Source: Nitrospinales bacterium (GTDB taxonomy: Bacteria; Nitrospinota; Nitrospinia; Nitrospinales; VA-1). From it: 64,000 nt of DNA. The notes under the pieces are model-generated. The model was not told the origin of the DNA, made no database searches, and saw only the letters and a list, made by a program, of their open reading frames with translations. The position numbers were made by a program, and so were the translations under genes. The stretch spans positions 12,607-76,606 of the forward strand of contig JBLFWU010000009.1 of NCBI GenBank assembly GCA_047610985.1, in the 5' to 3' direction. Shown here in pieces: positions 1 to 13,207 of the stretch (positions within the stretch are counted from its first letter, which is position 1; each line of letters opens with the position of its first letter).

Positions 1-77
1 TTAAAGAGCCGCTCAGGGCCAAAAACAATTTTTAAAGAAGCCAATCTATAATTTATCGAATAATCGGCGCGTTTTCT

Positions 78-1238
78 TTAGCTTTCTCTCCACGAGGACG
101 CAGTATTATTGAGGCTAACCGCTTTCACCAGGATTTTGATCACCGAATCCAACTCCGCTTTTGTAGTACTGCAACCTAAGCTGAAGCGAATAGAACTGTT
201 AATTTTGATATCAGGCAAACCCATAGCCTGCAAGACATGTGATGGCAATCCACTACCAGAACTGCAGGCAGAACCCGTTGACACCGCCACGCCTTCCATA
301 TCCATAGCAATCAAAAGCGTGTCCCCTTCCACACCTTCAAACCCCAAATTCAAAGTATTGGGCAAGCTATTTTGCATATCACCCAATAACTCGGCGCCAG
401 GGATCATTTCGCATACTTTATTATAAAAATAATCTTTCAATTCCGCGACCCGCGAAATTTCCAAGGTAGAAATTCTTTCAATAGCTATTTCACAGGCCTT
501 TCCAAAGCCAATTATACTGGCTACATTTTCTGTTCCCCCTCTTCTCTTCTTTTCCTGACTTCCACCACTGATCGGCGAGAAAAGAGCCGGCGTTCCTTTT
601 CTAAGGAATAAAGCCCCTACCCCCTTTGGACCATTAAACTTATGTGCGGAAATCGACAGCATGTCGACGGGATAATCTTTCAAGTCGAACTTTAACTTTG
701 CAACACTCTGCACGGCATCCGTATGGAATAAAACTCCCTTGCTCCGCGCCAATTCACTTACCTTTTTAATATCTTGTAAAACCCCGGTTTCGCTGTTCGC
801 ATGTTGCAGTGAGATTAAAGTGGTCGATTCAGTTATTTGCGATTCCAGGTCACCTATATCAATACGTCCAAACTGATCAACATCAAGATAGTGAACTTCG
901 ACCCCCTGCCCTTCCAATTGACGGCAGGGATTGAGTATCGAAGGATGCTCCGTTTTGCTGGTAATTATTTTTTTGCCTTTACCTTGAAGCGCGACACCTA
1001 AAAGCGCAAGGTTGTTTGCCTCGGTTCCACCACTGGTAAAGATGATTTCTGTAGAGCTGGCACCGATCAAACGAGCCACCTTTTCCCGCGCTTCATCCAA
1101 TTGAACTCTAGCTGAACGACCGAACGAATGAATGCTGGAAGGATTACCAAAATTGTCCCGCAAAGCAGGCAACATCGCATTCAAAACTTCAGGATGCAAC
1201 GGGGTCGTTGCATTATGATCGAGATAAATCTTTTCCAT
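78..1238 (-). CDS. nifS: cysteine desulfurase (class V aminotransferase, NifS/IscS type)
   Basis: 386-aa ORF. N-terminal YLDHNATTP, PLP-lysine motif SAHKFNGPKGVG and active-site Cys loop STGSACSSG. Confidence 0.9.
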   Translation of the reverse strand: MEKIYLDHNATTPLHPEVLNAMLPALRDNFGNPSSIHSFGRSARVQLDEAREKVARLIGASSTEIIFTSGGTEANNLALLGVALQGKGKKIITSKTEHPSILNPCRQLEGQGVEVHYLDVDQFGRIDIGDLESQITESTTLISLQHANSETGVLQDIKKVSELARSKGVLFHTDAVQSVAKLKFDLKDYPVDMLSISAHKFNGPKGVGALFLRKGTPALFSPISGGSQEKKRRGGTENVASIIGFGKACEIAIERISTLEISRVAELKDYFYNKVCEMIPGAELLGDMQNSLPNTLNLGFEGVEGDTLLIAMDMEGVAVSTGSACSSGSGLPSHVLQAMGLPDIKINSSIRFSLGCSTTKAELDSVIKILVKAVSLNNTASSWRES

Positions 1239-1292
1239 AATAACCCTACATTAGTAAACGAACAGGAAATATACAACAGAGGCTAACAAGAC

Positions 1293-2009
1293 CTAACCGG
1301 AGCTCTTTTTTCTAGCGGTTTCGTCAATCGAGGATGAGTCGGTAATGCCATTTTCTTTTAACGTTTCTTTCAACTGGCGAATTTCTTTTTGCATTTCTGG
1401 CAAGCGATCCAACATACATTCAATAGCCCTCGCAACCGGATCAGGAAAAGATTCGGTTTCATCATCGTCTTCTAAGTCAGAAGAGATGCCAGAGAAAACA
1501 ACTCGGCCGGGTACACCTATCACTGTCGAATATTCCGGGACATTCTGTAAAACCACCGAGCCAGATCCGATTTTAGTGTTGCAACCAATTTTAATAGGCC
1601 CAAGAATCTTGGCTCCGGCACCAATAACCACATCATTAGATATCGTTGGATGACGCTTTCCCCTTTTGGTAGCCAATCCCCCCAAAGTCACACCCTGATA
1701 GATGAAAACATTGTCTCCTACTTCAGATGTCTCTCCAATGACCACACCCATACCATGATCAATAAAAAACCGATTCCCAATAATAGCAGCCGGGTGTATT
1801 TCAATCCCAGTGAACCACCGGGAAAGTTGAGACAAAGCTCGGGCAATAAATTTAAACCCGATTCCCCAAAGCCAATGCGTTATTCGATAGGTCACCAGCG
1901 CATGAACGCCTGGATAAAGAATAAGAACCTCCAGCGCATTTCTTGCCGCCGGGTCTTTTTCCAGAGCAACCGCAATATCTTCTTTTATCTGCCGAAGCAT
2001 CATAGACAT
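1293..2009 (-). CDS. cysE: serine O-acetyltransferase
   Basis: 238 aa. N-terminal SATase helical region ([16 protein letters not shown]), then left-handed hexapeptide repeats ([41 protein letters not shown]). Confidence 0.9.
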
Positions 2010-2106
2010 ATAACCTGTTGTTAATCTTTATATTATAGCGCAGTCCAGCCCATACGCAATGCCTGCATATTTGGACAAGTGGAGATCTAAATGGCGGGGG
2101 AGAAAA

Positions 2107-2787
2107 CTATTTGTACATAAGAGATACTAATTGAGCGCGGGCATGCACTCGAAACTTGGAATAAACCTTTTTTAAATGGTCTTTTACTGTGTGTGGACTC
2201 AAATTAAGCTTCCTGGCAATTTCCTTGTCACTCAAACCTTCACAAATCAAGCGAGCCACATCGGCTTCCCTTTGAGTTAAGCCTGCCTCTTGCATTAAAA
2301 AGTGTATTTGTTTTTCAAGCTTGTCGTCTTCCTTGTGGCTAATCAAATCATCATTTTCTGTTTCAGCTTTATCAAACATTTTCAGATTCTCTCGCGCCCG
2401 ACTTGAAAGCGTTTTCAAGATCGCCATCAAAGTATCTGGATAGGAGGCCAATTTAGAATGGAACAAATCATGCGTTATTTCCAATAACTGGGTAACACCA
2501 GAAGACACCACCTTCGCAGAACGGGGCTTAGACTCGATCAAAGCCATCTCTCCCAGATACTCGCCCATACCCCGAAGAGCAATCTCCGTTTGATGTTTGA
2601 TTACAGTCAATCCACCTGAAAGAATGACAAACATGGAGTTGCCTTCTTCGCCATCTTCAAATAACACTTCTCCATCTTCCAAGTTCTTAAATAAACATTC
2701 GCTGGCAACAGAATCTAAAACATCCTCAGGAAGGTTTTTCAGGAAGTCAATTTTAGACAAAAAATCTAAATTTGTTAACTCAGACAC
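2107..2787 (-). CDS. transcriptional regulator, N-terminal cyclic-nucleotide-binding domain plus C-terminal LuxR/GerE HTH
   Basis: cNMP-binding beta-barrel with phosphate-binding cassette GEMALIESKPRSAKVV. C-terminal LTQREADVARLICEGLSDKEIARKLNLSPHTVKDHLKKVYSKF is a typical GerE-type HTH. Confidence 0.85.
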   Translation of the reverse strand: MSELTNLDFLSKIDFLKNLPEDVLDSVASECLFKNLEDGEVLFEDGEEGNSMFVILSGGLTVIKHQTEIALRGMGEYLGEMALIESKPRSAKVVSSGVTQLLEITHDLFHSKLASYPDTLMAILKTLSSRARENLKMFDKAETENDDLISHKEDDKLEKQIHFLMQEAGLTQREADVARLICEGLSDKEIARKLNLSPHTVKDHLKKVYSKFRVHARAQLVSLMYK

Positions 2788-2915
2788 TCAAGCACCATTA
2801 AGTAATTAACACCGAAAATTTTAAAACACATACTGAGGTTATACGAGCGGGATTATAGCATTTTTTTAGGGGTAGATATTTTGGCAAAAAATTATAATTG
2901 GGATTGCTGAACAAA

Positions 2916-4445
2916 TCACATTTTCAAACTAAAGCCAAACAAATAAATGTTTTGAGTAAAGTCAACAGACGTTAAATTAGAATTGCTCATGACTCGTTTC
3001 ACATTAATATTAACTTCAAGGGCATCAATAATTGACCGGCTTAAACTTAACTGAACCGTATGTTTTGCATCAAAACGTCGCTCGCCTATGCTGGGTGTAA
3101 CATTTTTATAATTTGAATAATTAAAGCTGTAGTTCAAGGTAGTTTTTAATTTTAAAGGACCAGGCAAACGCAACCCCGCACTTGCCGAATGGCCTAACAA
3201 ATCGAATCTAGGATCTTCTGTATCCCCCAAGTCTAAACCATAACGTACTAGAATATAAGCTTTGCTCTCCAAAAAAAAGAAAAACTGGCTTAAGCTCCAG
3301 GAATGATTTGTCCCATCGCGAGTATTACTGGATATGAAGTTTGTTTTGCTAAAAGAATAGCTGGCGAAGGTATAAAAGTTTGGAATCGGAATAAAACTGA
3401 TACGCGGATTAATATTATGCGTCGCAACAAAATCACTTCGATCAAGAAAGCTATAACTATAGCTATAACTTAGGTCGGCATCCCAATTTTCAAAAGAATA
3501 TGATGTAGAAGTGTTAAAGCTATGAGCCTGGTAATCAAATTCAGGAAGTTTATCCCAAAGGCTCTGAGAAAAATCATAACCAATTTCAAGGCTCGCCTTT
3601 TTACTACTATATAAACTTGCCCCCACACCCACATCATAGTTCAACGACATATCTTGTTCGTTTGATATCGTATCCTGTTCCACGATTGAGACATTGTCGT
3701 CGTACTGCCAGTTCACTCCAGCAGTGATCCACCATGGCTTATCATTGGCGGCTGCACTCCCCATTTGTTCGAGTAATTTTTTTGAATGTCTAGCCGTTTC
3801 GGTTTCAGGATCGTCTTCCAGCACCATCTCGAGGGCCAGTTTTGCATCTTCCTTTTCGTTCATTTCCATATACGCGATAGCAATTTGGAATAAAGCAGTC
3901 TGGTTGAGAGAAGGGTCCAGGCTCATAGCTGTTTGAAAGTTGATTAAAGAATCTTCAAATTTCTCCATTTGCTGCAGGGTGAGGCCTATAAATAAATACG
4001 CGGAAGCATTTTGTGGCTCTTCCTCCAATACCATTTCAAATTCTTTGATAGCCTCGGTATTGGATTTGTTCTTAAAGTAAGCAATCCCCAACTGCAGACG
4101 AGCGCCTTTATAATTTGGATTGAGCTCAAGAACTTTTTTAAACGTTACAATGGCTTCATTAAACTTTTCTGCCTTATTAAAGGTCAGTCCCTTAAAATAA
4201 TGAGCCTCAAGGTTGGTGGGGTCTTTTTCTAATAGCAGAGAAAATTCTCGCAAGGCCGGATCAAACTTTCCCTCATTATAAAATTGTAAACCACGAATAA
4301 GAGAGGGGGAATTTGCTTCTTCTGCTTGGACAGGATGCAACCATAGAAAAAGGGAAAGAAATAAGAAAAGAAAATATTTCAGCACAGTTACAAGCCCGTC
4401 TAAAGAAGAAAAAAAGATATTATCTGATTCCTGACTATTTTCCAA
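2916..4445 (-). CDS. outer-membrane protein, N-terminal TPR repeats plus C-terminal beta-barrel-like region
   Basis: 509 aa. Hydrophobic signal/anchor, about 5 TPR units (aa 50-230), then about 270 aa of alternating Y/S/N/D-rich amphipathic strands typical of an OM barrel. Confidence 0.6.
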   Translation of the reverse strand: MENSQESDNIFFSSLDGLVTVLKYFLFLFLSLFLWLHPVQAEEANSPSLIRGLQFYNEGKFDPALREFSLLLEKDPTNLEAHYFKGLTFNKAEKFNEAIVTFKKVLELNPNYKGARLQLGIAYFKNKSNTEAIKEFEMVLEEEPQNASAYLFIGLTLQQMEKFEDSLINFQTAMSLDPSLNQTALFQIAIAYMEMNEKEDAKLALEMVLEDDPETETARHSKKLLEQMGSAAANDKPWWITAGVNWQYDDNVSIVEQDTISNEQDMSLNYDVGVGASLYSSKKASLEIGYDFSQSLWDKLPEFDYQAHSFNTSTSYSFENWDADLSYSYSYSFLDRSDFVATHNINPRISFIPIPNFYTFASYSFSKTNFISSNTRDGTNHSWSLSQFFFFLESKAYILVRYGLDLGDTEDPRFDLLGHSASAGLRLPGPLKLKTTLNYSFNYSNYKNVTPSIGERRFDAKHTVQLSLSRSIIDALEVNINVKRVMSNSNLTSVDFTQNIYLFGFSLKM

Positions 4446-4501
4446 TAGTAATCAATAGGTTAAAACTTGATACTGCTTAATTATTAGACGTTTTTTAGCG
4501 G

Positions 4502-4515
4502 GTTGACGGGTCAAC
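4502..4515. promoter_or_regulatory. perfect palindrome GTTGAC-gg-GTCAAC, 57-70 nt upstream of the TPR/barrel gene start
   Basis: Read directly from the sequence. The 2-nt spacer is too short for a hairpin loop, so a dimeric protein-binding site is more plausible than an RNA structure. Confidence 0.3.
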
Positions 4516-4564
4516 ATCAGAACTTTTTAAGAAGATTTTTACCCCCCCCCATGGTTTTGGGAGA

Positions 4565-6706
4565 TCATTTTTCCTTTTCCTTCTTTTCCTTGTCTTTCTT
4601 TGCTGCATCGGCGGCGGCTTGGGCAACAGCTTGTGCAGCAGCATCGGCAGCAGCTTGCGCAGCAGCATCGGCAGCAGCTTGTGCAGCAGCATCGGCAGCG
4701 GCTTGCGCAGCAGCATCAGCAGCGGCTTGCGCAGCAGCATCAGCAGCGGCTTGCGCAGCAGCATCGGCAGCAGCTTGTGCAGCAGCATCGGCAGCGGCTT
4801 GTGCAGCAGCACCTTTGGCAGATTTGTCTGCAGCATCTTTCGCGGCTTTGTCGGCGGCACCTTTGGCAGATTTGTCTGCAGCATCTTTCGCGGCTTTGTC
4901 AGCTGCACCTTTGGCTGACTTGTCTGCAGCATCTTTCGCGGCTTTGTCGGCGACACCTTTGGCTGACTTGTCTGCAGCATCTTTCGCGGCTTTGTCAGCT
5001 GCACCTTTGGCTGACTTGTCTGCGACTTCTTTGGCTGACCTATTTGCCGAATCTTTTGCTACTTTCTTCGAAACATTTTTAACTACATCTTTCGTCGCGG
5101 CTTTGACCGTATCTTTTGAAACGGTCTTAACGGCATCATTGGTTGCTAACTTCACCACATCTTTCGTAGCAGTCTTAACAGATTCTTTTGAAACATTCTT
5201 AGCCGCTCCATTTGCTTGATCCTTCACCTGACTCTTTGTTGCTAATTTTGTGGGGGCTTTTATTGGACTCTGCTCAATATTGGTATTGGATCCCTTCTCC
5301 TGCTTGGCCGTAACGGGGTTTACAGAAACTTTTCCGTCTTGTTTGCTGGCGGGCTGGCTTTCACCATTTTCGTTAGTCGAATCCGATTCTTTTTTCGAAT
5401 TTTTCGGGTTTTGCGAATCTTTATTTTTTGCGTCTTTGAAAGAAGGAAAAGGAGATGTGTTCTTTGATGTCAATTTGGCTAATTTAAATCGAGGTTTCTG
5501 CACCGATTCTTTAGACACAACCTTATTTTTCGATGTTTTCTCAGCTTTCTTTAAGCTCACACCTCTTTCTTCTGCCAGTTTAAGAGATTTGCCCTTGCCT
5601 ACTTTAACTTCCTTGGCTCCTTTGGATCCTTTTTCCTTACTCCCTTTGCCTGCTTTTCCTTTGTCAGCTTTTCCCTTATCGCCCTTTCCTTTATTGCCTT
5701 TATCCTTATTTTTGCCATTACCGTTATTGCTCTTTTCTTTATCTTTACCGAAAGCGTTTCCGTTATTTGATTTAACAACGGCAGCCGCAACCCCTTTGGC
5801 AATTTCCTGAATCTGGCCTTTCGCTACAATTGCTTTTTTTCCAAGCCTTCCGTTGGCGAGCAAGGGTGCCGTTTCAATAGAACCCGATATACCAATAAAA
5901 GATGTCTTACCCAATTTATCGACCGTCACGACAAACTCTGTACCACGCACACCGGCTACAGCCGTTGGCGTTACCACTTTAAAGCTCGATCCTTTTGCTT
6001 TCCCTTTGGTAACGACAAAGCGAACGGTTCCCAAAGCCACATGGACTACGGTTTGCCTAAGATCTTTATCGGGGTCATAAATATGTTTTTTAATACTGAC
6101 ATTGGTTTTTTCTCCAAGTGTCAAGGTACTTTTATCATCAAAAGTAAAAGTGGCTTCAGAATCAGATTTGGTTTTTATCCGGTCATTCATAAAAACCGGC
6201 GAAGCCAGTTTCACATTTGACGAATTAACTTCTCCATCATGAAATTGAAGAATATTTCCTTCCGCTCCTGTTGCGATTCCGACATCAGCAGACCTCACAA
6301 CCCCCTGCTTTTTTAAAAACAATTTTTGCTCAAATAAATTTCTTCCAGGGGGTTCACCTGATAAAGCGTAGGTAAGACGAACAAATTCCTGCTCCGTCAA
6401 CACCCCTGTTGCATCTTTTTTACTCAGAACATTAAACCCACGAATTTTCAATATTCTGGAAGTCTTTGCAAAAAGTTGCTCAGGCGATAAATTGATATGA
6501 TTTTTAGGGAGAAAGGGGTGGTCGGGTTGGTTCTTGGCAATCATTGCTACGAAATCTGCTCTGTTAACCTGGGAATTATCAGGAGTGGCAGAAGTAAAAA
6601 CAAAAAAACAAAACACCAGCGCAACCCCTTTCAGGAAGCGGGATAAGAACAGTGTAATGTTTTTCGTATAAATTTCCATAACACTCAATATTAAAATGGA
6701 TTCCAA
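4565..6706 (-). CDS. FecR-domain envelope protein with a long Lys/Ala-rich repetitive C-terminal tail
   Basis: 713 aa. N-terminal hydrophobic segment; the start could be the internal Met at 6679. FecR-type signature ...VHVALGTVRFVV...FKVVTPTAVAGVRGTEFVV. The C-terminal ~350 aa are low complexity (K/N/G-rich, 11-mer-like KDxVK repeats, then the KGAADKAAKDAADKSA and AAQAAADA arrays). Confidence 0.75.
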   Translation of the reverse strand: MESILILSVMEIYTKNITLFLSRFLKGVALVFCFFVFTSATPDNSQVNRADFVAMIAKNQPDHPFLPKNHINLSPEQLFAKTSRILKIRGFNVLSKKDATGVLTEQEFVRLTYALSGEPPGRNLFEQKLFLKKQGVVRSADVGIATGAEGNILQFHDGEVNSSNVKLASPVFMNDRIKTKSDSEATFTFDDKSTLTLGEKTNVSIKKHIYDPDKDLRQTVVHVALGTVRFVVTKGKAKGSSFKVVTPTAVAGVRGTEFVVTVDKLGKTSFIGISGSIETAPLLANGRLGKKAIVAKGQIQEIAKGVAAAVVKSNNGNAFGKDKEKSNNGNGKNKDKGNKGKGDKGKADKGKAGKGSKEKGSKGAKEVKVGKGKSLKLAEERGVSLKKAEKTSKNKVVSKESVQKPRFKLAKLTSKNTSPFPSFKDAKNKDSQNPKNSKKESDSTNENGESQPASKQDGKVSVNPVTAKQEKGSNTNIEQSPIKAPTKLATKSQVKDQANGAAKNVSKESVKTATKDVVKLATNDAVKTVSKDTVKAATKDVVKNVSKKVAKDSANRSAKEVADKSAKGAADKAAKDAADKSAKGVADKAAKDAADKSAKGAADKAAKDAADKSAKGAADKAAKDAADKSAKGAAAQAAADAAAQAAADAAAQAAADAAAQAAADAAAQAAADAAAQAAADAAAQAAADAAAQAVAQAAADAAKKDKEKKEKEK
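4600..4810. repeat. in-frame 24-bp tandem repeat, about 8.5 copies (encodes AAQAAADA on the minus strand)
   Basis: Seven clean 24-bp units GCAGCATCGGCAGC(A/G)GCTTG(C/T)GCA span 4638-4805, plus a degenerate copy upstream. Variation between copies is limited to a few positions. Confidence 0.9.
4811..5030. repeat. in-frame 48-bp tandem repeat, about 4.5 copies (encodes KGAADKAAKDAADKSA on the minus strand)
   Basis: Unit ACCTTTGGC(A/T)GA(T/C)TTGTCTGCAGCATCTTTCGCGGCTTTGTC(G/A)GC(G/T)(G/A)C repeats at 4811, 4859, 4907 and 4955, with a partial copy from 5003. Confidence 0.9.
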
Positions 6707-6764
6707 AGGTTTCCAGGATAGAGTTACTTTCCATCCTTTTTACAGTGTTCCTCCAATTTGACTT

Positions 6765-6801
6765 AATAGCAACCCCCCGAACGGGGGGGGTTATTGCTAT
6801 T
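6765..6801 (-). terminator. GC-rich stem-loop about 100 nt downstream of the GGDEF/EAL gene stop
   Basis: AATAGCAACCCCCC-GAAC-GGGGGGGGTTATTGCTATT is a long imperfect hairpin with C6/G8 runs. No clear U-tract on either strand, so it is not a canonical intrinsic terminator. Confidence 0.35.
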
Positions 6802-6805
6802 AACT

Positions 6806-6849
6806 AAGTTGTGACGAAGGGGCACACAAAGTTGTGACAAAAGATCACA
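6806..6849. promoter_or_regulatory. direct repeat AAGTTGTGAC (x2, 23-bp pitch) with TGTGA/TCACA inverted half-sites, 100-140 nt upstream of the FecR-domain gene
   Basis: AAGTTGTGAC occurs at 6806-6815 and 6829-6838. The second copy forms TTGTGA-caaaaga-TCACAA (6833-6849). Confidence 0.35.
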
Positions 6850-6897
6850 AGTGTTCCATACCAGACTTACAAATCTGGGTGGAAACAAGAATCATCT

Positions 6898-8778
6898 CTA
6901 TATTAAATTATTCAATTGGAACTTCTTCAGAATAGGGCCAAGACTTTCGGAGGGTAAAGGTTTTTCTATAATATTTCCTTGAATTGCATCGCAGTTATGT
7001 TCGCAAAGGAAACCTTTTTGTTCTTCTGTTTCGACTCCTTGAGCGGTTGTTTTCAAATTTAGGCTTTTACCAATAGTAATAATTGCATTGGTTATGGTGT
7101 TATTGGGCCCCGTGAATAATCTATTCACCAAACCCCGGTCAATATTCAAGGAGTTTAAAGGCAAAGTTGCCAGGGTTTTAAGGGAAGACAAACCCATACT
7201 AAAATTATCAAGGGTAATTTTTGCTCCCATTTCACTAATTTCATTTATCTGCTTTTTTTGCTCCACCGAAGTTTTAACTAAATTAGTTTCGGAAATTTCA
7301 ACTTCAACAAATCCCGATAGAAGGCCTGATTTACTAATAAATTTATCCAGAGCTTGATAAAATTTGGGGTTCATCAGTTGACTGTTGGACAAATTAATTG
7401 CCAAAGGTAAGGGGGACAACCCTTCTTTTTTCCATGCTTCAATTTGTTTTAGAATATTTTCGAATACCCAATCACCAATGGGAAGCATCAACCCTTTTTC
7501 TTCTGCAAAGGGAATAAAGTCTCCTGGCATAATAAGACCCTTTTCAGGGTGGTTCCACCTGAGTAATACTTCCAGACTCTTACAAAGACCCGTTTTCGAG
7601 TCAACTCTAGGTTGATAATTTAAAACAAATGCATCATCTTCCAATGCCCTGTGCAAATCATTTTTGAGATCAAATCTTTTTTGAGCCACAGAGAGCATTT
7701 CAGGATCATGCATATTATAAGTATTTTTTTCCTGTGCCTTGGCTCGATACATAGCCGCATCTGCATTTTTATAAAGTGTTTCGACATCATTACCATCATT
7801 GGGGTAAACAGCTATTCCTATACTAAAACTAGTGTAAATTTCATGCTCATCAATTTGAAAAGCAGGCTTGAGAGTTTCTATTATTCTTTCTGCAAGTGCG
7901 GTTGAATAGTTCCCGTCTTTCAATCCACTCAACAGAACAACAAACTCATCGCCCCCTATCCTTGCAACGGTATCCTCGCCTCTCAATAATCCTGTCAAAC
8001 GATTAGCTACTTGTTTTAACAACTCATCTCCAACCGAATGCCCCAGAGTATCGTTAACCGATTTAAAGTCATCCATATCCAAAAATAGCAATGCAAACTT
8101 TTGTTTATTACGGTCAGAATAAGCAAGAGCCAATTGAATTCTGTCATTGATCATGTTGCGGTTCGGCAAATTGGTGAGAGGATCAAAAAAAGCCATTCGC
8201 TTCATTTTAGATTGCATCTGCCGGAATTCAGTAAGGTCTCGCACGATAGCAACTAGGGCGCTATCATCGCGCAAGATCATCAATCTCATCTTCACTTTTA
8301 CGGGGTAAACCGTTCCATCTTTTCTCTTTTGAAAAGCTTCAAAAACCTGAATTAATTTTTGCCCGTTAATGAGTTTCTGAGCATAGACATCAAACTCCAA
8401 GCGTGAATGATCTTCCCAAAATTCATAAAGCCCTCTCCCCTTAATATTTTCCTTCCTATAACCTATATTTGATGATGCAACAGAATTGGTTTGGGTAATT
8501 TTATAATCTTGGGGATCTATGATGTAAATCTCATTGGTGGTATCGTCAAGCACCTGTGACAATTGTTCTGCATTATCCTTAGCAAGAATAAGTTCGGCAT
8601 TCATCCCGTCGATAACATCCAGATCTTTTCGAGCTCTTTGTGAAAGCGTTTTTAGAAGGGCAAATAAGGATTGAGAATGGGCAGCAAATTCTTCCTGAAA
8701 CTTTTCTTCTGTAATTTCAAGTAACTGAGATTTCATTTCAGCACGAATGGTGGCAGATCTAGGCTCAGATTCTATCAC
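6898..8778 (-). CDS. PAS-GGDEF-EAL c-di-GMP signalling protein, 3' part of a gene interrupted inside its N-terminal cNMP-binding domain
   Basis: 626-aa ORF opening with IESEPRSATIRA, the second half of a cNMP phosphate-binding cassette. PAS region, intact GGDEF (RIGGDEFVV) with an RxxD I-site (RGED), then an EAL domain (EVLLRW) with substitutions at conserved catalytic positions. Confidence 0.85.
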   Translation of the reverse strand: MIESEPRSATIRAEMKSQLLEITEEKFQEEFAAHSQSLFALLKTLSQRARKDLDVIDGMNAELILAKDNAEQLSQVLDDTTNEIYIIDPQDYKITQTNSVASSNIGYRKENIKGRGLYEFWEDHSRLEFDVYAQKLINGQKLIQVFEAFQKRKDGTVYPVKVKMRLMILRDDSALVAIVRDLTEFRQMQSKMKRMAFFDPLTNLPNRNMINDRIQLALAYSDRNKQKFALLFLDMDDFKSVNDTLGHSVGDELLKQVANRLTGLLRGEDTVARIGGDEFVVLLSGLKDGNYSTALAERIIETLKPAFQIDEHEIYTSFSIGIAVYPNDGNDVETLYKNADAAMYRAKAQEKNTYNMHDPEMLSVAQKRFDLKNDLHRALEDDAFVLNYQPRVDSKTGLCKSLEVLLRWNHPEKGLIMPGDFIPFAEEKGLMLPIGDWVFENILKQIEAWKKEGLSPLPLAINLSNSQLMNPKFYQALDKFISKSGLLSGFVEVEISETNLVKTSVEQKKQINEISEMGAKITLDNFSMGLSSLKTLATLPLNSLNIDRGLVNRLFTGPNNTITNAIITIGKSLNLKTTAQGVETEEQKGFLCEHNCDAIQGNIIEKPLPSESLGPILKKFQLNNLI

Positions 8779-9041
8779 ACCATCTCACCTATATACTCAC
8801 TGGGCTTTCTTCTCGCTATCACCTTCTTTTCCTTATAAACCAGCATTTCTCCAGAAAGAATGATATACATGGCATCTGCAATATCGCCCTCTTCAAAAAG
8901 CACTTCATAAGGCTCAAGCGTAATTATTCTGGAAGAACGTGCCAGTTTTTCAAGGGTCTCTTCAGAGAAAAAGCCAAGAAAGTCCACATTCTTCAGTTGC
9001 GCTAAATTTTCCAATTTGTTCGTTGCAAGTTCTTCAGACAT
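8775..9041 (-). CDS. N-terminal fragment of a cyclic-nucleotide-binding domain, 5' part of the frameshifted gene above
   Basis: ORF ends ...PSEYIGEMV*, exactly where the paralog at 2107-2787 continues GEMALIESKPRS. The stop TGA overlaps the GTG of the downstream ORF (GTGA). Start chosen at MSEELATNK (9041); the track start is 9074. Confidence 0.7.
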   Translation of the reverse strand: MSEELATNKLENLAQLKNVDFLGFFSEETLEKLARSSRIITLEPYEVLFEEGDIADAMYIILSGEMLVYKEKKVIARRKPSEYIGEMV

Positions 9042-9286
9042 AAAACCCAGCTCGATATAGTGAATAAAAAACAAGTCTGATATAATTATTTTTTCATACA
9101 GCGTTGAGTATAATTTCTTTTATTGAAAAAAAAACCCCCACCCTTAGGGGGTAGTGATATTTACATTGTTTTAAAAGGACTTAACCTATTATTTGTTACA
9201 CAACATTTACATTATTCATCTTGCCTCCCTTCAAGAGCTTATCGAAACTCGAATAAAAACTATAAGTAAAGAGAGCGAAGAAGAAA

Positions 9287-11560
9287 TTGAATACAAAAAA
9301 TAAAGGATACTCCACTTATATTGCAGGTTTTACAATAACCCTGCTTTTAATATTTATATATGCAGTTTCTCCCACCGCATTAACTCGACTCGATTACCTT
9401 TTCCAAAACATTCATTTTCAATTACGCGGCCCTATTGAACCCTCTTCTAATATTGTTATCGCAGAAATTGATGAAAAAAGCATAGACACATTGGGTAGGT
9501 GGCCCTGGCCTAGATCCACTTTCGCAAAAATAACTGAAAACCTTTCAAATTTAAATGCCAGTGTCATCGCATTTGATGTCATATTTTCATCTCCTGAAAA
9601 AAATCCATTAGAAGATAATCTGATTGAACTGGAAGAAATGATTCCAGAAAGCATTCCGCAAAATTCTTCAGCAAAAAATTATTTAAAACAGCTCATAAAC
9701 CAAAGTAATCCTGATGAAATTTTTTCTAAAACTCTTTCTGATGGGAGTAATACGGTACTTGGATATTTTTTCCATTTTTCACCCGATGGCCTTGGCCAAC
9801 TTACAGAAGAGAAACGTCATCATTTTTTTGAAGATATAAAAAAATCGCAATTCAGAGGATTTTTAAAATCCCATTCCGATTTAGATATTTCTCACCTACT
9901 TTTTCCAAAAGTTTATGCTATCGAATCAAATCTGGCTTCTTTCTCTGATGCTGCATCTGGTTCTGGTTATTTCACTTTTAATGTTGACCTTGATGGAATG
10001 ATTCGACGTTTACCTTTAATCGTGCGTTATCACGATAGTATTACTAAAAAGGATTTTTATTTTCCACCACTCTCCTTACGAATACTCGAAACCTATTTAG
10101 AGGGAACATTGCTCTTTCGAGTCGGGGAAGCGGGGATGGAAGAAGTCATAATGGATTCTGATGAGTCCGTAATCATACCCACCAATCCCCAAGGCGAACT
10201 AGAAATTAACCATCTGGGGCCTCGAGGGACTTTTTCAAGCTTTTCTATCAGCGATCTTTTACAACCTGAAAAACAATCGAAACTAAAAGAAAAGATACAA
10301 GGAAATATTGTATTGATAGGGGCAACGGCAACGGCTCTTGAAGATTTAAGGTCTACGCCGTTCGACCCGGCTCTACCGGGAGTAGAAATCCATGCGACTA
10401 TTTTAGACAATTTTTTCAACAAATCGTTTCTGTCGCAAGCCTCCCCTCTCTACGATTTACTTTTAATTATTATTACGGGGATTTTATGCACCCTCATCTA
10501 TTCTCGAATCAAACCTTTTTCAGGCCTCATTTTCTGGGTTTTCAGCAGTCTCATGTTTTTCCTTTTTGGTCATTGGGTTTTTGTGGAAAAAGGTTTTTGG
10601 TTAACAGATATATATCCTTTTTTTACCAATACTAGTATCGCCGCCTTAATCATGATCAATCATTATATTCGCGAAGAAGAACAAACAAAATTTATCAAAG
10701 AAGTGTTTGGTCAATATCTTTCCCCAAGAGTGGTGAAAGATTTGCTAACAGACCCCTCAAGATTAAAGCTGGGTGGCGAGCAAAAAGAGCTTTCTGCATT
10801 CTTTACAGATCTTGCAAACTTCACAACTTTTTCAGAAAAACTTTCAGCGGAAGACCTGGTATCCCTTTTAAACAGCTATTTCACTGAAATGACGGATATA
10901 TTAATAAGAAATGATGGGACTCTGGACCGCTACGATGGAGATGCAATTAAAGCATTTTTTGGAGCTCCCATGTATTTCAAAGATCATGCCAAACGCGCCT
11001 GCTGGACTTGTATTGAAATGCAGGAAAGACTCAGTGAGCTTAGAAAAGAATATAAGCAACAGGGAAAACCAGAGTTGGTCATGCGAGTGGGTATCAACAC
11101 AGGGGAAATGGTTGTCGGTAACATTGGGTCAAGCACACGTATGAGCTACGGCATGAATGGCGACTCCGTCAATTTAGCTGCTCGCCTTGAAGGCGCAAAC
11201 AAACAATATGGTAGTTGCTCCCTCATTAGCGAATCCACTTACCAGCAAGCAAAAGAGTTTATAGAAGTAAGAGAACTCGATACCCTTCGCGTTGTTGGTC
11301 GTGCGACCCCTATAAAAATTTATGAATTATTAGGGAAGAAAGGCAGTGATAATTTCCCAATAGCCTTATCTGATTATTTGGAAGGGCTGGATAATTATAA
11401 AGCTCAGAATTGGCAGGACGCGATTAAAAACTTTCAAAAAGCCTTAAAGATTGACCCTGATGATGGCCCTTCAAACACCTATCTGGAGCGATGCAAGATA
11501 TTCATGAAATCACCTCCTGGAGAGGATTGGGACGGGATATTTAATTTAACCAAAAAGTAA
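9287..11560 (+). CDS. CHASE2 sensor-domain class III adenylate/guanylate cyclase with a C-terminal TPR
   Basis: 757 aa, TTG start. N-terminal TM, ~350-aa periplasmic CHASE2-like region (IDEKSIDTLGRWPWPRS), TM cluster at aa 390-460, and cyclase homology domain (SAFFTDLANFTTFSE...RYDGDAIKAFFGAP...VGINTGEMVVGNIGS). Confidence 0.85.
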   Translation: MNTKNKGYSTYIAGFTITLLLIFIYAVSPTALTRLDYLFQNIHFQLRGPIEPSSNIVIAEIDEKSIDTLGRWPWPRSTFAKITENLSNLNASVIAFDVIFSSPEKNPLEDNLIELEEMIPESIPQNSSAKNYLKQLINQSNPDEIFSKTLSDGSNTVLGYFFHFSPDGLGQLTEEKRHHFFEDIKKSQFRGFLKSHSDLDISHLLFPKVYAIESNLASFSDAASGSGYFTFNVDLDGMIRRLPLIVRYHDSITKKDFYFPPLSLRILETYLEGTLLFRVGEAGMEEVIMDSDESVIIPTNPQGELEINHLGPRGTFSSFSISDLLQPEKQSKLKEKIQGNIVLIGATATALEDLRSTPFDPALPGVEIHATILDNFFNKSFLSQASPLYDLLLIIITGILCTLIYSRIKPFSGLIFWVFSSLMFFLFGHWVFVEKGFWLTDIYPFFTNTSIAALIMINHYIREEEQTKFIKEVFGQYLSPRVVKDLLTDPSRLKLGGEQKELSAFFTDLANFTTFSEKLSAEDLVSLLNSYFTEMTDILIRNDGTLDRYDGDAIKAFFGAPMYFKDHAKRACWTCIEMQERLSELRKEYKQQGKPELVMRVGINTGEMVVGNIGSSTRMSYGMNGDSVNLAARLEGANKQYGSCSLISESTYQQAKEFIEVRELDTLRVVGRATPIKIYELLGKKGSDNFPIALSDYLEGLDNYKAQNWQDAIKNFQKALKIDPDDGPSNTYLERCKIFMKSPPGEDWDGIFNLTKK

Positions 11561-11574
11561 TATTTGATACACTT

Positions 11575-12366
11575 TCAGGAAGATTCTGGGGAGTCCGCTT
11601 CGATAGTACGTTGATATTCTTGCAAAATAGCATCCTGCGTTTTTTGATCGGCTGCCTTATAAATGCGGATGGTTTCAAAATGCTGGCCCTGCTGAATCCG
11701 CAATAATTTTAGTCGCATCAATTCAAGAATGGCTAGAAAGGTTACGATAACCTCCTGCTTGCTATTTAGAACTGTGAAAAATGAATCGAAAGTAACACTA
11801 TCCGACGAGTTTAAAATATCCAGAACATGTTGTATTCGATCGGTGACCGACATTTCGGTGATTTCAATTTCATAGTCTTTCTCAAAAGTTTTCGTATCTA
11901 AAATATTCTGATACGCTTTGAGAAGATCGAATACGGTTGCATCGACCAGTTCGCGATTTTCTGAGCTTTCCTCTATTTCAAGTTCACCGCCTCTGGAAAA
12001 AACCTGCTGCCGGTCGTGTTCTTTCATTCGCAGTTCAAATGCGGCATCACGATAACGTTGATATTCTCGCAAGCGGCGCATCAGTTCTGCGCGCGGGTCT
12101 TCCCCACCTTCAAACTCAGTTTCCTCATCGGTTTCCTGGGACGGTAATAATATTTTCGACTTGATCCGGGTTAGCTCTGCGGCCATTACCAGATACTCGC
12201 CCACCAGTTCCAAATTCATCTCCTGCATCATTTCCAGATATCGTAAATACTGTCGAGTGATTTCTGCAATGGAAATATCATAGATATCCATTTTCTGCTC
12301 TTTTAGCAGATGTAATAAAAGGTCCAGAGGGCCTTCAAAGATTTCGAGCTTGCATTGATAAGTCAT
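11575..12366 (-). CDS. scpA: segregation and condensation protein A
   Basis: 263 aa. The N-terminus FEGPLDLLLHLLKEQKMDIYDISIAEITRQYL is the classic ScpA signature. Confidence 0.9.
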   Translation of the reverse strand: MTYQCKLEIFEGPLDLLLHLLKEQKMDIYDISIAEITRQYLRYLEMMQEMNLELVGEYLVMAAELTRIKSKILLPSQETDEETEFEGGEDPRAELMRRLREYQRYRDAAFELRMKEHDRQQVFSRGGELEIEESSENRELVDATVFDLLKAYQNILDTKTFEKDYEIEITEMSVTDRIQHVLDILNSSDSVTFDSFFTVLNSKQEVIVTFLAILELMRLKLLRIQQGQHFETIRIYKAADQKTQDAILQEYQRTIEADSPESS

Positions 12367-12478
12367 TTAAATAAACCGAAAGGTGATAAAATTCGTTGCA
12401 TTATAAAAGGGTTCGTTTTCAAAAACACTTAAATTTCAAAGAAGGGACTGATCTTCCCTCTTCAACTTTGTAACTGGA

Positions 12479-13207
12479 TTAAATATCGCCCCATTTAGAT
12501 TGCAGTAACGACAAAACTACCAGCGGCGCGGTTTCTGCGCGCAATATTCTAGGGCCTAATCCTACTGTCTGAAAACCATGGCTACGGGCTGTCTCTACTT
12601 CTTCAATAGTGAAACCGCCCTCCGGGCCGATCAACACACTCACTGAAGATGGAGTTTTTTCTGGATTAATATCTTTCAAGCCTTTCTCACTTTCCAACTC
12701 CCAAAACATCAATTTCAAATCTGTCTCACTTCTCTGTTGGCAAAAAACATCTAGCTTAATAACACTTTCTGAAACGTTAGGGATCGAACTTCGGCCGCAT
12801 TGCTTGCAACTTTCTTCCGCGATTTTTTGCCAACGGGCAATCTTTTTATTACTGTCACTTTTCACCATCGTGCGTTCCGTCATTAATGGTGTGATCGTTT
12901 CGACACCCAGTTCGACCGACTTACGCAAAATAACATCAAACTTGTTTCCCTTTATTAAAGATTGGCCGAGGTGAATTTTTAAAGGTGATTCTGTATTCAC
13001 TTTTTCCGATGATATGATTTCACCTTTTACCAGTTGGGCTTTAACATCTGTAAGCTGCACTATAAAAAGAGAACTTTCCCCATCCAACACCTGAATTTTA
13101 TCCCCTATCTGTAACCGTAGAACGGTACGGATATGGCTGGCATCGGTGCCCGTGAGAACAACCGAATCCCCTGAGAAATTTTCATTACCCGCAAAAAAAC
13201 GATGCAT
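12479..13207 (-). CDS. rsmE: 16S rRNA (uracil1498-N3)-methyltransferase
   Basis: 242 aa. MHRFF start, PUA-like N-terminus, KSVELGVETITPLMTERT and C-terminal IGPEGGFT..E...LGPRILRAETAP. Confidence 0.9.
   Translation of the reverse strand: MHRFFAGNENFSGDSVVLTGTDASHIRTVLRLQIGDKIQVLDGESSLFIVQLTDVKAQLVKGEIISSEKVNTESPLKIHLGQSLIKGNKFDVILRKSVELGVETITPLMTERTMVKSDSNKKIARWQKIAEESCKQCGRSSIPNVSESVIKLDVFCQQRSETDLKLMFWELESEKGLKDINPEKTPSSVSVLIGPEGGFTIEEVETARSHGFQTVGLGPRILRAETAPLVVLSLLQSKWGDI

Follow-up and report, generated by a model that had tools for sequence, protein, structure and literature searches.

A CHASE2 cyclase island of a Nitrospinales bacterium as a candidate split form of the NsrA-CyaK signalling module

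This study concerns an island of five genes, including one for a CHASE2-domain class III nucleotidyl cyclase, in a 64,000-nucleotide stretch of DNA, hereafter called the window, from a Nitrospinales bacterium of the phylum Nitrospinota (assembly GCA_047610985.1, contig JBLFWU010000009.1, positions 12,607 to 76,606 of the forward strand). The source genome is a metagenome assembly of 3.05 Mb in 131 contigs, with a completeness of 92%. The initial annotation had placed five genes in the island, and the listing of open reading frames and Pfam confirm their positions and their domains. Four of them lie on the reverse strand and encode a regulator with a cyclic nucleoside monophosphate (cNMP)-binding domain and a LuxR/GerE helix-turn-helix (2107-2787), an outer-membrane TPR/barrel protein (2916-4445), a FecR-domain protein (4565-6706) and, in interrupted form, a cNMP/PAS/GGDEF/EAL protein (6898-9074). 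The cyclase gene (9287-11560) is divergently transcribed from the forward strand. The island is flanked by nifS/cysE on one side and by scpA/rsmE on the other, and is syntenic in three congeners (L021, L022 and L023).

The cyclase, its envelope neighbours and the regulator

The cyclase (757 residues) carries a CHASE2 domain (Pfam, 6.7e-53), a Guanylate_cyc domain (1.8e-21) and one C-terminal TPR. Its alignment to CyaB of Pseudomonas aeruginosa and Cya2 of Synechocystis indicates that both metal-binding aspartates and the transition-state asparagine and arginine are kept. Judged from its sequence, the protein would thus join a periplasmic CHASE2 domain to a catalytically competent class III domain, as expected of the cyclase of an NsrA-CyaK-type module. 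A Lys/Asp(Thr) pair at the substrate-specifying positions denotes ATP as substrate and a Glu/Cys(Gly) pair denotes GTP. In 4/4 genomes of this genus, the purine-specifying lysine is replaced by arginine (the residue in LDRYDGD), with glycine as partner, whereas orthologues from other genera have K-G, and the two paralogous groups of CHASE2 cyclases of the phylum have K-T or Q-S. The R-G pair is therefore a mixed one, with the glycine of the guanylate cyclase Cya2 and the basic residue of adenylate cyclases, and the nucleotide produced is not deducible from these residues. A second CHASE2 cyclase, of the K-T type, occupies the extreme edge of an 8.5-kb contig (G000, contig C89:7-2244), which cuts off its upstream side.

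The FecR-domain protein (713 residues), which gives the only FecR-domain match of the entire assembly, is a Sec-exported protein made of a cleavable signal peptide, a small helical domain, a FecR beta-domain (Pfam FecR, 6.7e-15) and a disordered Ala/Lys-rich tail of about 385 residues. In the AlphaFold2 model of residues 31-340 (5687-6616; pLDDT 86, pTM 0.76), which includes the helical domain and the beta-domain, the latter matches the periplasmic domains of the anti-sigma proteins BDI_1681 (4M0N) and PupR (6OVK), with Foldseek E values of 2e-6 to 1e-5. The PupR domain of entry 6OVK was crystallised in complex; its partner is PupB, an outer-membrane transducer, represented by its signalling domain. 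The window protein itself has neither an anti-sigma domain nor a membrane anchor, and no sigma factor or TonB-dependent receptor is encoded among its neighbours, so that the locus lacks the hallmarks of FecIR-type signalling.

The end of the tail is encoded by in-frame tandem repeats (4622-5023, reverse strand), which Tandem Repeats Finder resolves into near-perfect arrays of 24 bp x 7.9 and 48 bp x 4.8. Across 65 orthologues the tail is hypervariable, with lengths from about 70 to 390 residues, low in complexity and for the most part basic, with GKGKGK as a frequent ending. In neither the window protein nor ten Nitrospinota orthologues was an 8-strand barrel or a TbpB-like domain found at the C-terminus, such as the cargo of Slam translocons carries. 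The best NCBIfam match is the Leptospira 'surface adhesin Lsa33'. The N-terminal helical domain has no sequence match in the PDB. About 67 residues of the protein superpose on the RIN plug domain of the Marinomonas ice-binding adhesin (5IX9; TM 0.78, root-mean-square deviation 1.5 A); since RIN is a beta-sandwich, this match was rejected as an identification of the helical domain and probably lies in the FecR beta-domain.

The TPR/barrel protein (509 residues) ends in about 270 residues that are not annotated by Pfam. Its AlphaFold2 model, built with 27 homologues (mean pLDDT 88.8), displays a signal-peptide helix, 12 TPR helices and a 14-strand barrel, and thus predicts the layout of the Slam family, i.e. 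a periplasmic TPR domain followed by a 14-strand C-terminal barrel. Foldseek retrieves BcsC for the overall TPR-plus-barrel shape and CymA, OmpG and FadL as 14-strand barrels. The window protein scores 39.5 bits on TPR_Slam (PF24575; cut-off 35.2) and has no match at E <= 1 to the SlipAM/DUF560 barrel model (PF04575; cut-off 22 bits). Its homologues P0018, P0022, P0024 and P0027 reach 23-30 bits on the latter model, and the match of P0018 covers the whole of it. When 92 Nitrospinota genomes are scanned in six frames, this model gives 24-30 bits for the orthologous TPR-barrels found beside FecR and CHASE2 in other genera and 38-54 bits for barrel-only paralogues. The window barrel matches its SlipAM-passing homologues directly (E 1e-62 to 1e-9). 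As these homologues and orthologues pass the SlipAM cut-off, the window barrel is assigned, by homology, to the Slam / type 11 secretion superfamily (SlipAM/DUF560). Neither CHASE2 nor FecR adjoins the distant barrel-only homologues P0024 (Hyphomicrobiales) and P0026, and the association is therefore not extended to the whole barrel family; a search with a narrower barrel alignment returned 10 loci, all from Nitrospinota.

The LuxR-type regulator combines cNMP_binding (Pfam, 1.2e-14) and GerE (3.6e-17) domains, and the phosphate-binding cassette of the former, GEMALIESKPRSA, is intact. The regulator is 83-93% identical in the three congeners, where its gene is also syntenic.

Conserved partners of CHASE2 cyclases

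The comparison set comprised 38 CHASE2 cyclase loci from 40 related genomes, searched with the window proteins. Orthologues of the cyclase, 48-89% identical, occur in the same genus, in four other genera of the family and in another family of the order. They keep FecR and TPR-barrel genes alongside, in variable orders and orientations; the exceptions are one locus whose barrel lacks the TPR and two with duplicated FecR genes. Genes encoding cNMP-binding effectors adjoin the cyclase in every lineage examined. In many cases, a paralogous cyclase has a separate FecR gene that lies farther away.

Over the 92 Nitrospinota genomes, a FecR domain lies within 10 kb of 69 of the 135 CHASE2 matches, against 2.65 expected by chance, and 58 genomes have both domains, 4 CHASE2 only, 5 FecR only and 25 neither (Fisher p = 1e-13), both comparisons ignoring kinship. 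Of the 64 barrel matches, 40 lie within 5 kb of a FecR domain and 32 within 10 kb of a CHASE2 domain. These counts cover at least three groups of cyclase paralogues and lead to the rejection of a chance adjacency of CHASE2, FecR and barrel genes. The conserved synteny that the initial annotation had proposed as a check thus holds both at the orthologous loci and in the wider counts.

A second type of module surrounds a paralogous K-T CHASE2 cyclase of Candidatus Nitrohelix (G018, L044 7056-11374). Its other products are a FecR protein of 253 residues, a membrane protein of the Wzy_C type, which resembles O-antigen ligases, and a SlipAM protein (41 bits) that consists of the barrel only.

Similar clusters are found in other phyla. 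The best plasmid match, pAMI5 of Paracoccus aminophilus, carries an operon encoding a TPR protein (474 residues), a FecR protein (655 residues) and a CHASE2 cyclase, with a divergent gene for a cNMP-binding patatin phospholipase, and two further alphaproteobacterial records repeat this arrangement (three in total). For the Paracoccus TPR protein, a profile-profile comparison shows a weak resemblance of the C-terminal half to the Nitrospinota barrel profile (probability 56%, E 1e-4, 249 columns); the single protein gives no significant match to that profile. Weak matches to TbpB_B_D and FHBP_C occur at the C-terminus of the FecR protein of Paracoccus. A CHASE2 cyclase of Leisingera comes after a small FecR protein, and a Crp/Fnr regulator adjoins. 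In Rhizobium sp. BG4, a single protein of 1213 residues, encoded directly upstream of the CHASE2 cyclase, includes a FecR domain (63-157), TPRs (415-530) and a long C-terminal region. The product of nsrA, upstream of cyaK on pSymB of Sinorhizobium meliloti, has the same FecR, TPR and barrel content. This fused form was checked in two loci (L072 and L076) and suggests, by the Rosetta-stone argument, that the two window proteins work together. On the Sphingobium plasmid pTomTYG71a (L075, 3177-10916), a CHASE2-like protein is accompanied by a CHAT-domain protein and a ShlB-type 'heme:hemopexin-binding protein', and no FecR protein is annotated.

The literature provides a functional precedent. NsrA is an outer-membrane protein required for the perception by CyaK of a proteinaceous signal, the ribosomal protein uL2, and the resulting cyclic AMP (cAMP) is read by Clr (PMC7529298, PMC13001267). 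An outer-membrane component needed for the activation of a cyclase by an external signal is known for S. meliloti only (PMC7529298). A Campylobacterota cluster associates a CHASE2 cyclase, a cAMP phosphodiesterase, a FecR-domain protein of the outer membrane and a TPR protein (PMC9239204), and a LysM-FecR protein is encoded beside a CHASE2 histidine kinase in Burkholderia (PMC5192318); both clusters are mentioned in passing, without a link to the Slam family. The papers on type 11 secretion that were searched mention no cyclase or CHASE2, and FecR only as an iron-sensing regulator (PMC12282271, PMC8406197). No published link of the SlipAM/DUF560 family to CHASE2 or FecR-domain partners was found in the literature searched.

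Probable loss of the c-di-GMP branch

The gene encoding the cNMP/PAS/GGDEF/EAL protein had been described as one open frame (6898-9041). It is split into two frames, 8775-9074 and 6898-8778, by a 1-nucleotide deletion at about 8776-8778. The break falls in the phosphate-binding cassette of the cNMP domain: the upstream frame ends with YIGEMV and a stop, and the downstream frame goes on with VIESEPRSATIR. Where the congeners read ATGGG(N)TTGAT (GEMGLIESEPRSA), the window reads ATGG-TGTGAT and is one base short. Intact orthologues of 717-739 residues are present in the three congeners.

When it is aligned with MucR and MorA, which are active enzymes, the EAL domain shows the motifs EVL, DNFSMGLSS, NID and QGVE. 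Three catalytic positions are replaced (DNFSMG for DDFGTG, NID for KID and QGVE for EGVE), a degeneracy common to the window gene and its orthologues in the congeners, while the GGDEF A-site and the RxxD I-site are intact. The split gene would thus encode neither an active EAL phosphodiesterase, given its replaced catalytic motifs, nor an active diguanylate cyclase, its reading frame being broken upstream, in the cNMP domain, although GGDEF is kept. Because the EAL domain is degenerate while GGDEF and the I-site are intact, the complete form found in relatives is, according to its motifs, a cNMP-controlled diguanylate cyclase and not a bifunctional enzyme; it would make, not degrade, cyclic di-GMP (c-di-GMP). 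The window gene is probably a pseudogene of such an enzyme.

In the three congeners, the interval from the cyclase gene to scpA contains a paralogue that shares the cNMP-PAS head but has a GGDDF motif and a fully intact EAL domain (L021 12781-14946; L022 12135-14249; L023 15262-17406). According to blastn and tblastn comparisons with these loci, this 2.2-kb phosphodiesterase-type gene is cleanly absent from the window, where the junction is found just past the cyclase gene (11561-11575), and from the rest of the assembly. From their motifs, the two c-di-GMP enzymes of the congeners are seen as an antagonistic pair, one diguanylate cyclase and one phosphodiesterase with reciprocal catalytic degeneracy; the cNMP domains keep their phosphate-binding cassettes. 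Both halves of this pair are lost in the genome analysed, one by frameshift and the other by deletion.

Could the frameshift be an assembly or sequencing error, the cascade being intact in the organism? The genome is a metagenome assembly of many contigs, and the change consists of a single missing base beside a short G run. However, the gene of the antagonistic phosphodiesterase has also gone from the same island, by a clean deletion, which fits a real loss of the branch. An error is thus possible but judged the less probable alternative and, since both halves of the pair are lost, a real pseudogene is favoured. This would represent a natural loss of the c-di-GMP branch, with the sensor and the transcription factor retained.

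These data also qualify two further claims of the initial annotation. The cascade from a cNMP to c-di-GMP that it had proposed is supported in the relatives, whose effectors lie beside the cyclase, but not in this genome, where the enzyme is frameshifted and the gene of its partner phosphodiesterase is deleted. The description of the two cNMP domains as close paralogs was overstated: those of the LuxR-type regulator and the GGDEF protein share 41-44% identity, and a cNMP domain encoded on contig C91 is nearer to that of the GGDEF protein (48%) than the regulator's domain is.

A structural precedent for cNMP control of a c-di-GMP enzyme is Bd1971 of Bdellovibrio, a cAMP-sensing EAL phosphodiesterase (PMC6717892). 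The enzymes described here resemble it in their N-terminal cNMP-binding domain controlling c-di-GMP turnover, on which two messengers would converge. They differ from it by their cNMP-PAS-GGDEF-EAL architecture and by the existence of two paralogues with reciprocal degeneracy, both of which have disappeared from this genome.

A candidate split NsrA-CyaK-type module and its rivals

The locus is interpreted here, with a probability of about 0.6, as a split form of the NsrA-CyaK-type module, signalling from the envelope to the cytoplasm by a cyclic nucleotide. From the observed gene content, folds, catalytic motifs, conserved linkage and rhizobial fusion, we infer as follows which proteins contact each other, which way the signal runs and what kind of cue is sensed. 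The CHASE2 domain of the inner-membrane cyclase would face the periplasm, and its input would be supplied by the two conserved partners, the secreted FecR-fold protein and the outer-membrane TPR/14-strand barrel protein of the Slam family. The FecR-fold domain belongs to the type by which FecR and PupR dock onto the portion of an outer-membrane protein that lies in the periplasm. The barrel and its TPR domain would then relay a cue, arising at the outer membrane or outside it, to the FecR-domain protein, and from there to CHASE2, which would alter the activity of the cyclase. The resulting cNMP would be read by the cNMP-LuxR transcription factor and, in the relatives, also by the antagonistic pair of c-di-GMP enzymes with a common cNMP-PAS head (active GGDEF with dead EAL; GGDDF with intact EAL). 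With the first of these enzymes frameshifted and the second deleted, the transcriptional branch alone would be left in this genome.

The closest known system is NsrA-CyaK/CyaD1/CyaD2-Clr of S. meliloti (Tian 2012, Garnerone 2018). In both systems, a class III cyclase with a CHASE2 domain lies in the inner membrane, modules for FecR, TPR and an outer-membrane barrel are encoded beside it (directly upstream in S. meliloti), and a cNMP-binding transcription factor forms the output. They differ in that the FecR protein and the TPR-barrel of the window are two polypeptides whereas NsrA is fused, and in that the window barrel is of the 14-strand SlipAM/DUF560 type whereas the NsrA barrel, of about 600 residues, has no detectable similarity to it. 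Furthermore, the window regulator combines a cNMP domain with LuxR/GerE and is not of the Crp type, and the relatives of the window add a cNMP-controlled diguanylate cyclase/phosphodiesterase pair.

Other systems resemble parts of the locus. The FecA-FecR-FecI and PupB-PupR systems have a FecR-fold periplasmic domain that touches a protein of the outer membrane and passes a signal on inward, but the window lacks the anti-sigma domain, the anchor, a nearby extracytoplasmic function sigma factor and the TonB-dependent transducer, and its output would be a cyclic nucleotide. The Campylobacterota cluster (PMC9239204) and the BiofilmReg operon of Burkholderia (PMC5192318) also place a CHASE2 receptor beside a FecR-domain protein, with a TPR protein in the former, but their accessory genes differ (cAMP phosphodiesterase; LysM domain, histidine kinase and response regulator). 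With the Slam/type 11 systems (Neisseria Slam1/2, Xenorhabdus NilB, HrpB; PF04575, PF24575), the window shares a periplasmic TPR domain followed by a 14-strand barrel and an adjacent gene for a Sec-exported partner. Here, however, the partner has a FecR domain and a basic tail that is disordered, unlike the known cargo with its C-terminal 8-strand barrel; the window has no TonB-dependent receptor, its pair is tied to a cyclase, and it belongs to Nitrospinota, outside the Proteobacteria surveyed in the papers on type 11 secretion.

Several observations weigh against a split NsrA-CyaK-type module. A comparison of the NsrA barrel with the window barrel profile reveals no similarity (hhalign probability 0.2%), so that the argument from the fusion is one of architecture and not of orthology. 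The linkage counts are uncorrected for phylogeny, and about half of the CHASE2 matches have no FecR match nearby. The most distant class of Nitrospinota has barrel-FecR pairs on short contigs that give no CHASE2 match; this suggests that the pair is the core unit, and it may have a separate function. Lastly, the idea of the initial annotation that a single cyclase output is read by both effectors has synteny as its one support, and the whole genome encodes three class III cyclases and gives about 19 cNMP-domain matches, so that the wiring would not be exclusive.

A different role is conceivable for the two envelope proteins, namely a secretion pair in which the TPR-barrel is a type 11 (Slam-like) translocon that moves the FecR protein, or its basic tail, to the cell surface. 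The FecR protein would then be an adhesin or a surface coat, which the cyclase and the cNMP regulators would merely control or with which they would be co-inherited. The TPR_Slam score above cut-off, the 14-strand barrel and the orthologues beside FecR and CHASE2 that pass the SlipAM cut-off all agree with secretion. So do the tighter pairing of the barrel with FecR than with CHASE2, including its occurrence without CHASE2 in one class, the weak C-terminal TbpB_B_D and FHBP_C matches of the Paracoccus FecR protein, which are a mark of Slam cargo, the match to Lsa33 and the repeat-driven hypervariable tail, which suggests surface exposure. This role is nevertheless unlikely, as no cargo-type C-terminal domain was found in the window FecR protein and its ten Nitrospinota relatives, the window barrel itself lies below the SlipAM threshold, and secretion leaves unexplained both the fused protein of rhizobia, in which FecR precedes the barrel at the N-terminus, and the genetics of NsrA. 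It is moreover compatible with the split sensor. Indeed, a branch of the Slam/type 11 family might, tentatively, have been recruited for signalling: the barrel would hold or thread the FecR protein, with its tail at the surface and its FecR head in the periplasm against CHASE2, forming a three-piece trans-envelope receptor of which NsrA is the fused form. If true, this would provide a general input mechanism for CHASE2 receptors and a non-secretory role for type 11 systems. Finally, the TPR-barrel could be an exopolysaccharide porin, a BcsC/PgaA-like exporter under the c-di-GMP of the island, with the FecR protein as an unrelated neighbour. The best whole-protein Foldseek match, which is Escherichia coli BcsC, weak EpsL and BBP2_2 matches and the c-di-GMP enzyme genes of the island point in this direction. 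However, the barrel has 14 strands and not 16, the island contains no synthase or glycosyltransferase gene, the BBP2_2 matches span only the last ~70 profile positions whereas SlipAM matches over its full length, and the barrel tracks FecR and CHASE2 rather than the c-di-GMP genes. An exporter is thus very improbable, and the strand number and the lack of synthase genes led to its rejection.

The split NsrA-CyaK-type module also bears on the candidates that the initial annotation had named for the input of CHASE2. The FecR and TPR-barrel proteins are indeed conserved partners in Nitrospinota and in Paracoccus-type Alphaproteobacteria and are fused upstream of rhizobial cyaK. The central proposal, that CHASE2 receives its input from an envelope device, is thus supported, yet it is already in the literature, the device being a variant of the NsrA-CyaK principle; likewise, the statement that the ligand of CHASE2 domains is unknown is partly outdated, as the uL2 protein signal acts through NsrA-CyaK. 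Relative to the literature searched, the new elements are the split architecture, the placing of the barrel in Slam/DUF560, the hypervariable basic tail of the FecR partner, and the reciprocal cNMP-controlled enzyme pair of the congeners with its loss here.

CHASE2 is among the commonest extracytoplasmic sensor domains of bacteria, and its inputs are known for one system only, NsrA-CyaK. A secreted FecR protein and a Slam-family barrel appear as its regular partners in Nitrospinota and Alphaproteobacteria, with similar clusters reported for Campylobacterota, and these partners give a concrete set of three proteins for reconstitution. The literatures on CHASE2 signalling and on type 11 secretion, between which no mutual citation was found in the papers searched, are thereby joined. 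For the Nitrospinaceae, which are key marine nitrite oxidisers, the data point to an envelope-sensed cyclic-nucleotide control of transcription and, in the relatives, also of c-di-GMP.

The intergenic sequences of the island contain several additional elements. The divergent region between the cNMP-GGDEF gene and the cyclase gene (9075-9286) includes a strong GC hairpin followed by T9 (9134-9152, reverse strand), about 60 nucleotides upstream of the start of the cNMP-GGDEF gene and with no gene upstream on the same strand. Either an attenuator in a leader or a terminator working in both directions is conceivable; an Rfam scan of positions 1-13000, this hairpin included, found no family above threshold. 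Between the stop of the GGDEF-EAL gene and the start of the FecR gene, a C8/G8 hairpin inside a longer inverted repeat and repeated GTCACAACTT boxes (6773-6792 and 6806-6849) are candidate terminator and operator sites. Nine C in a run (4542-4550; G9 on the coding strand) lie 15 nucleotides past the stop of the FecR gene, adjoined by a GTTGAC-GG-GTCAAC palindrome, and a homopolymer of this length is prone to slippage.

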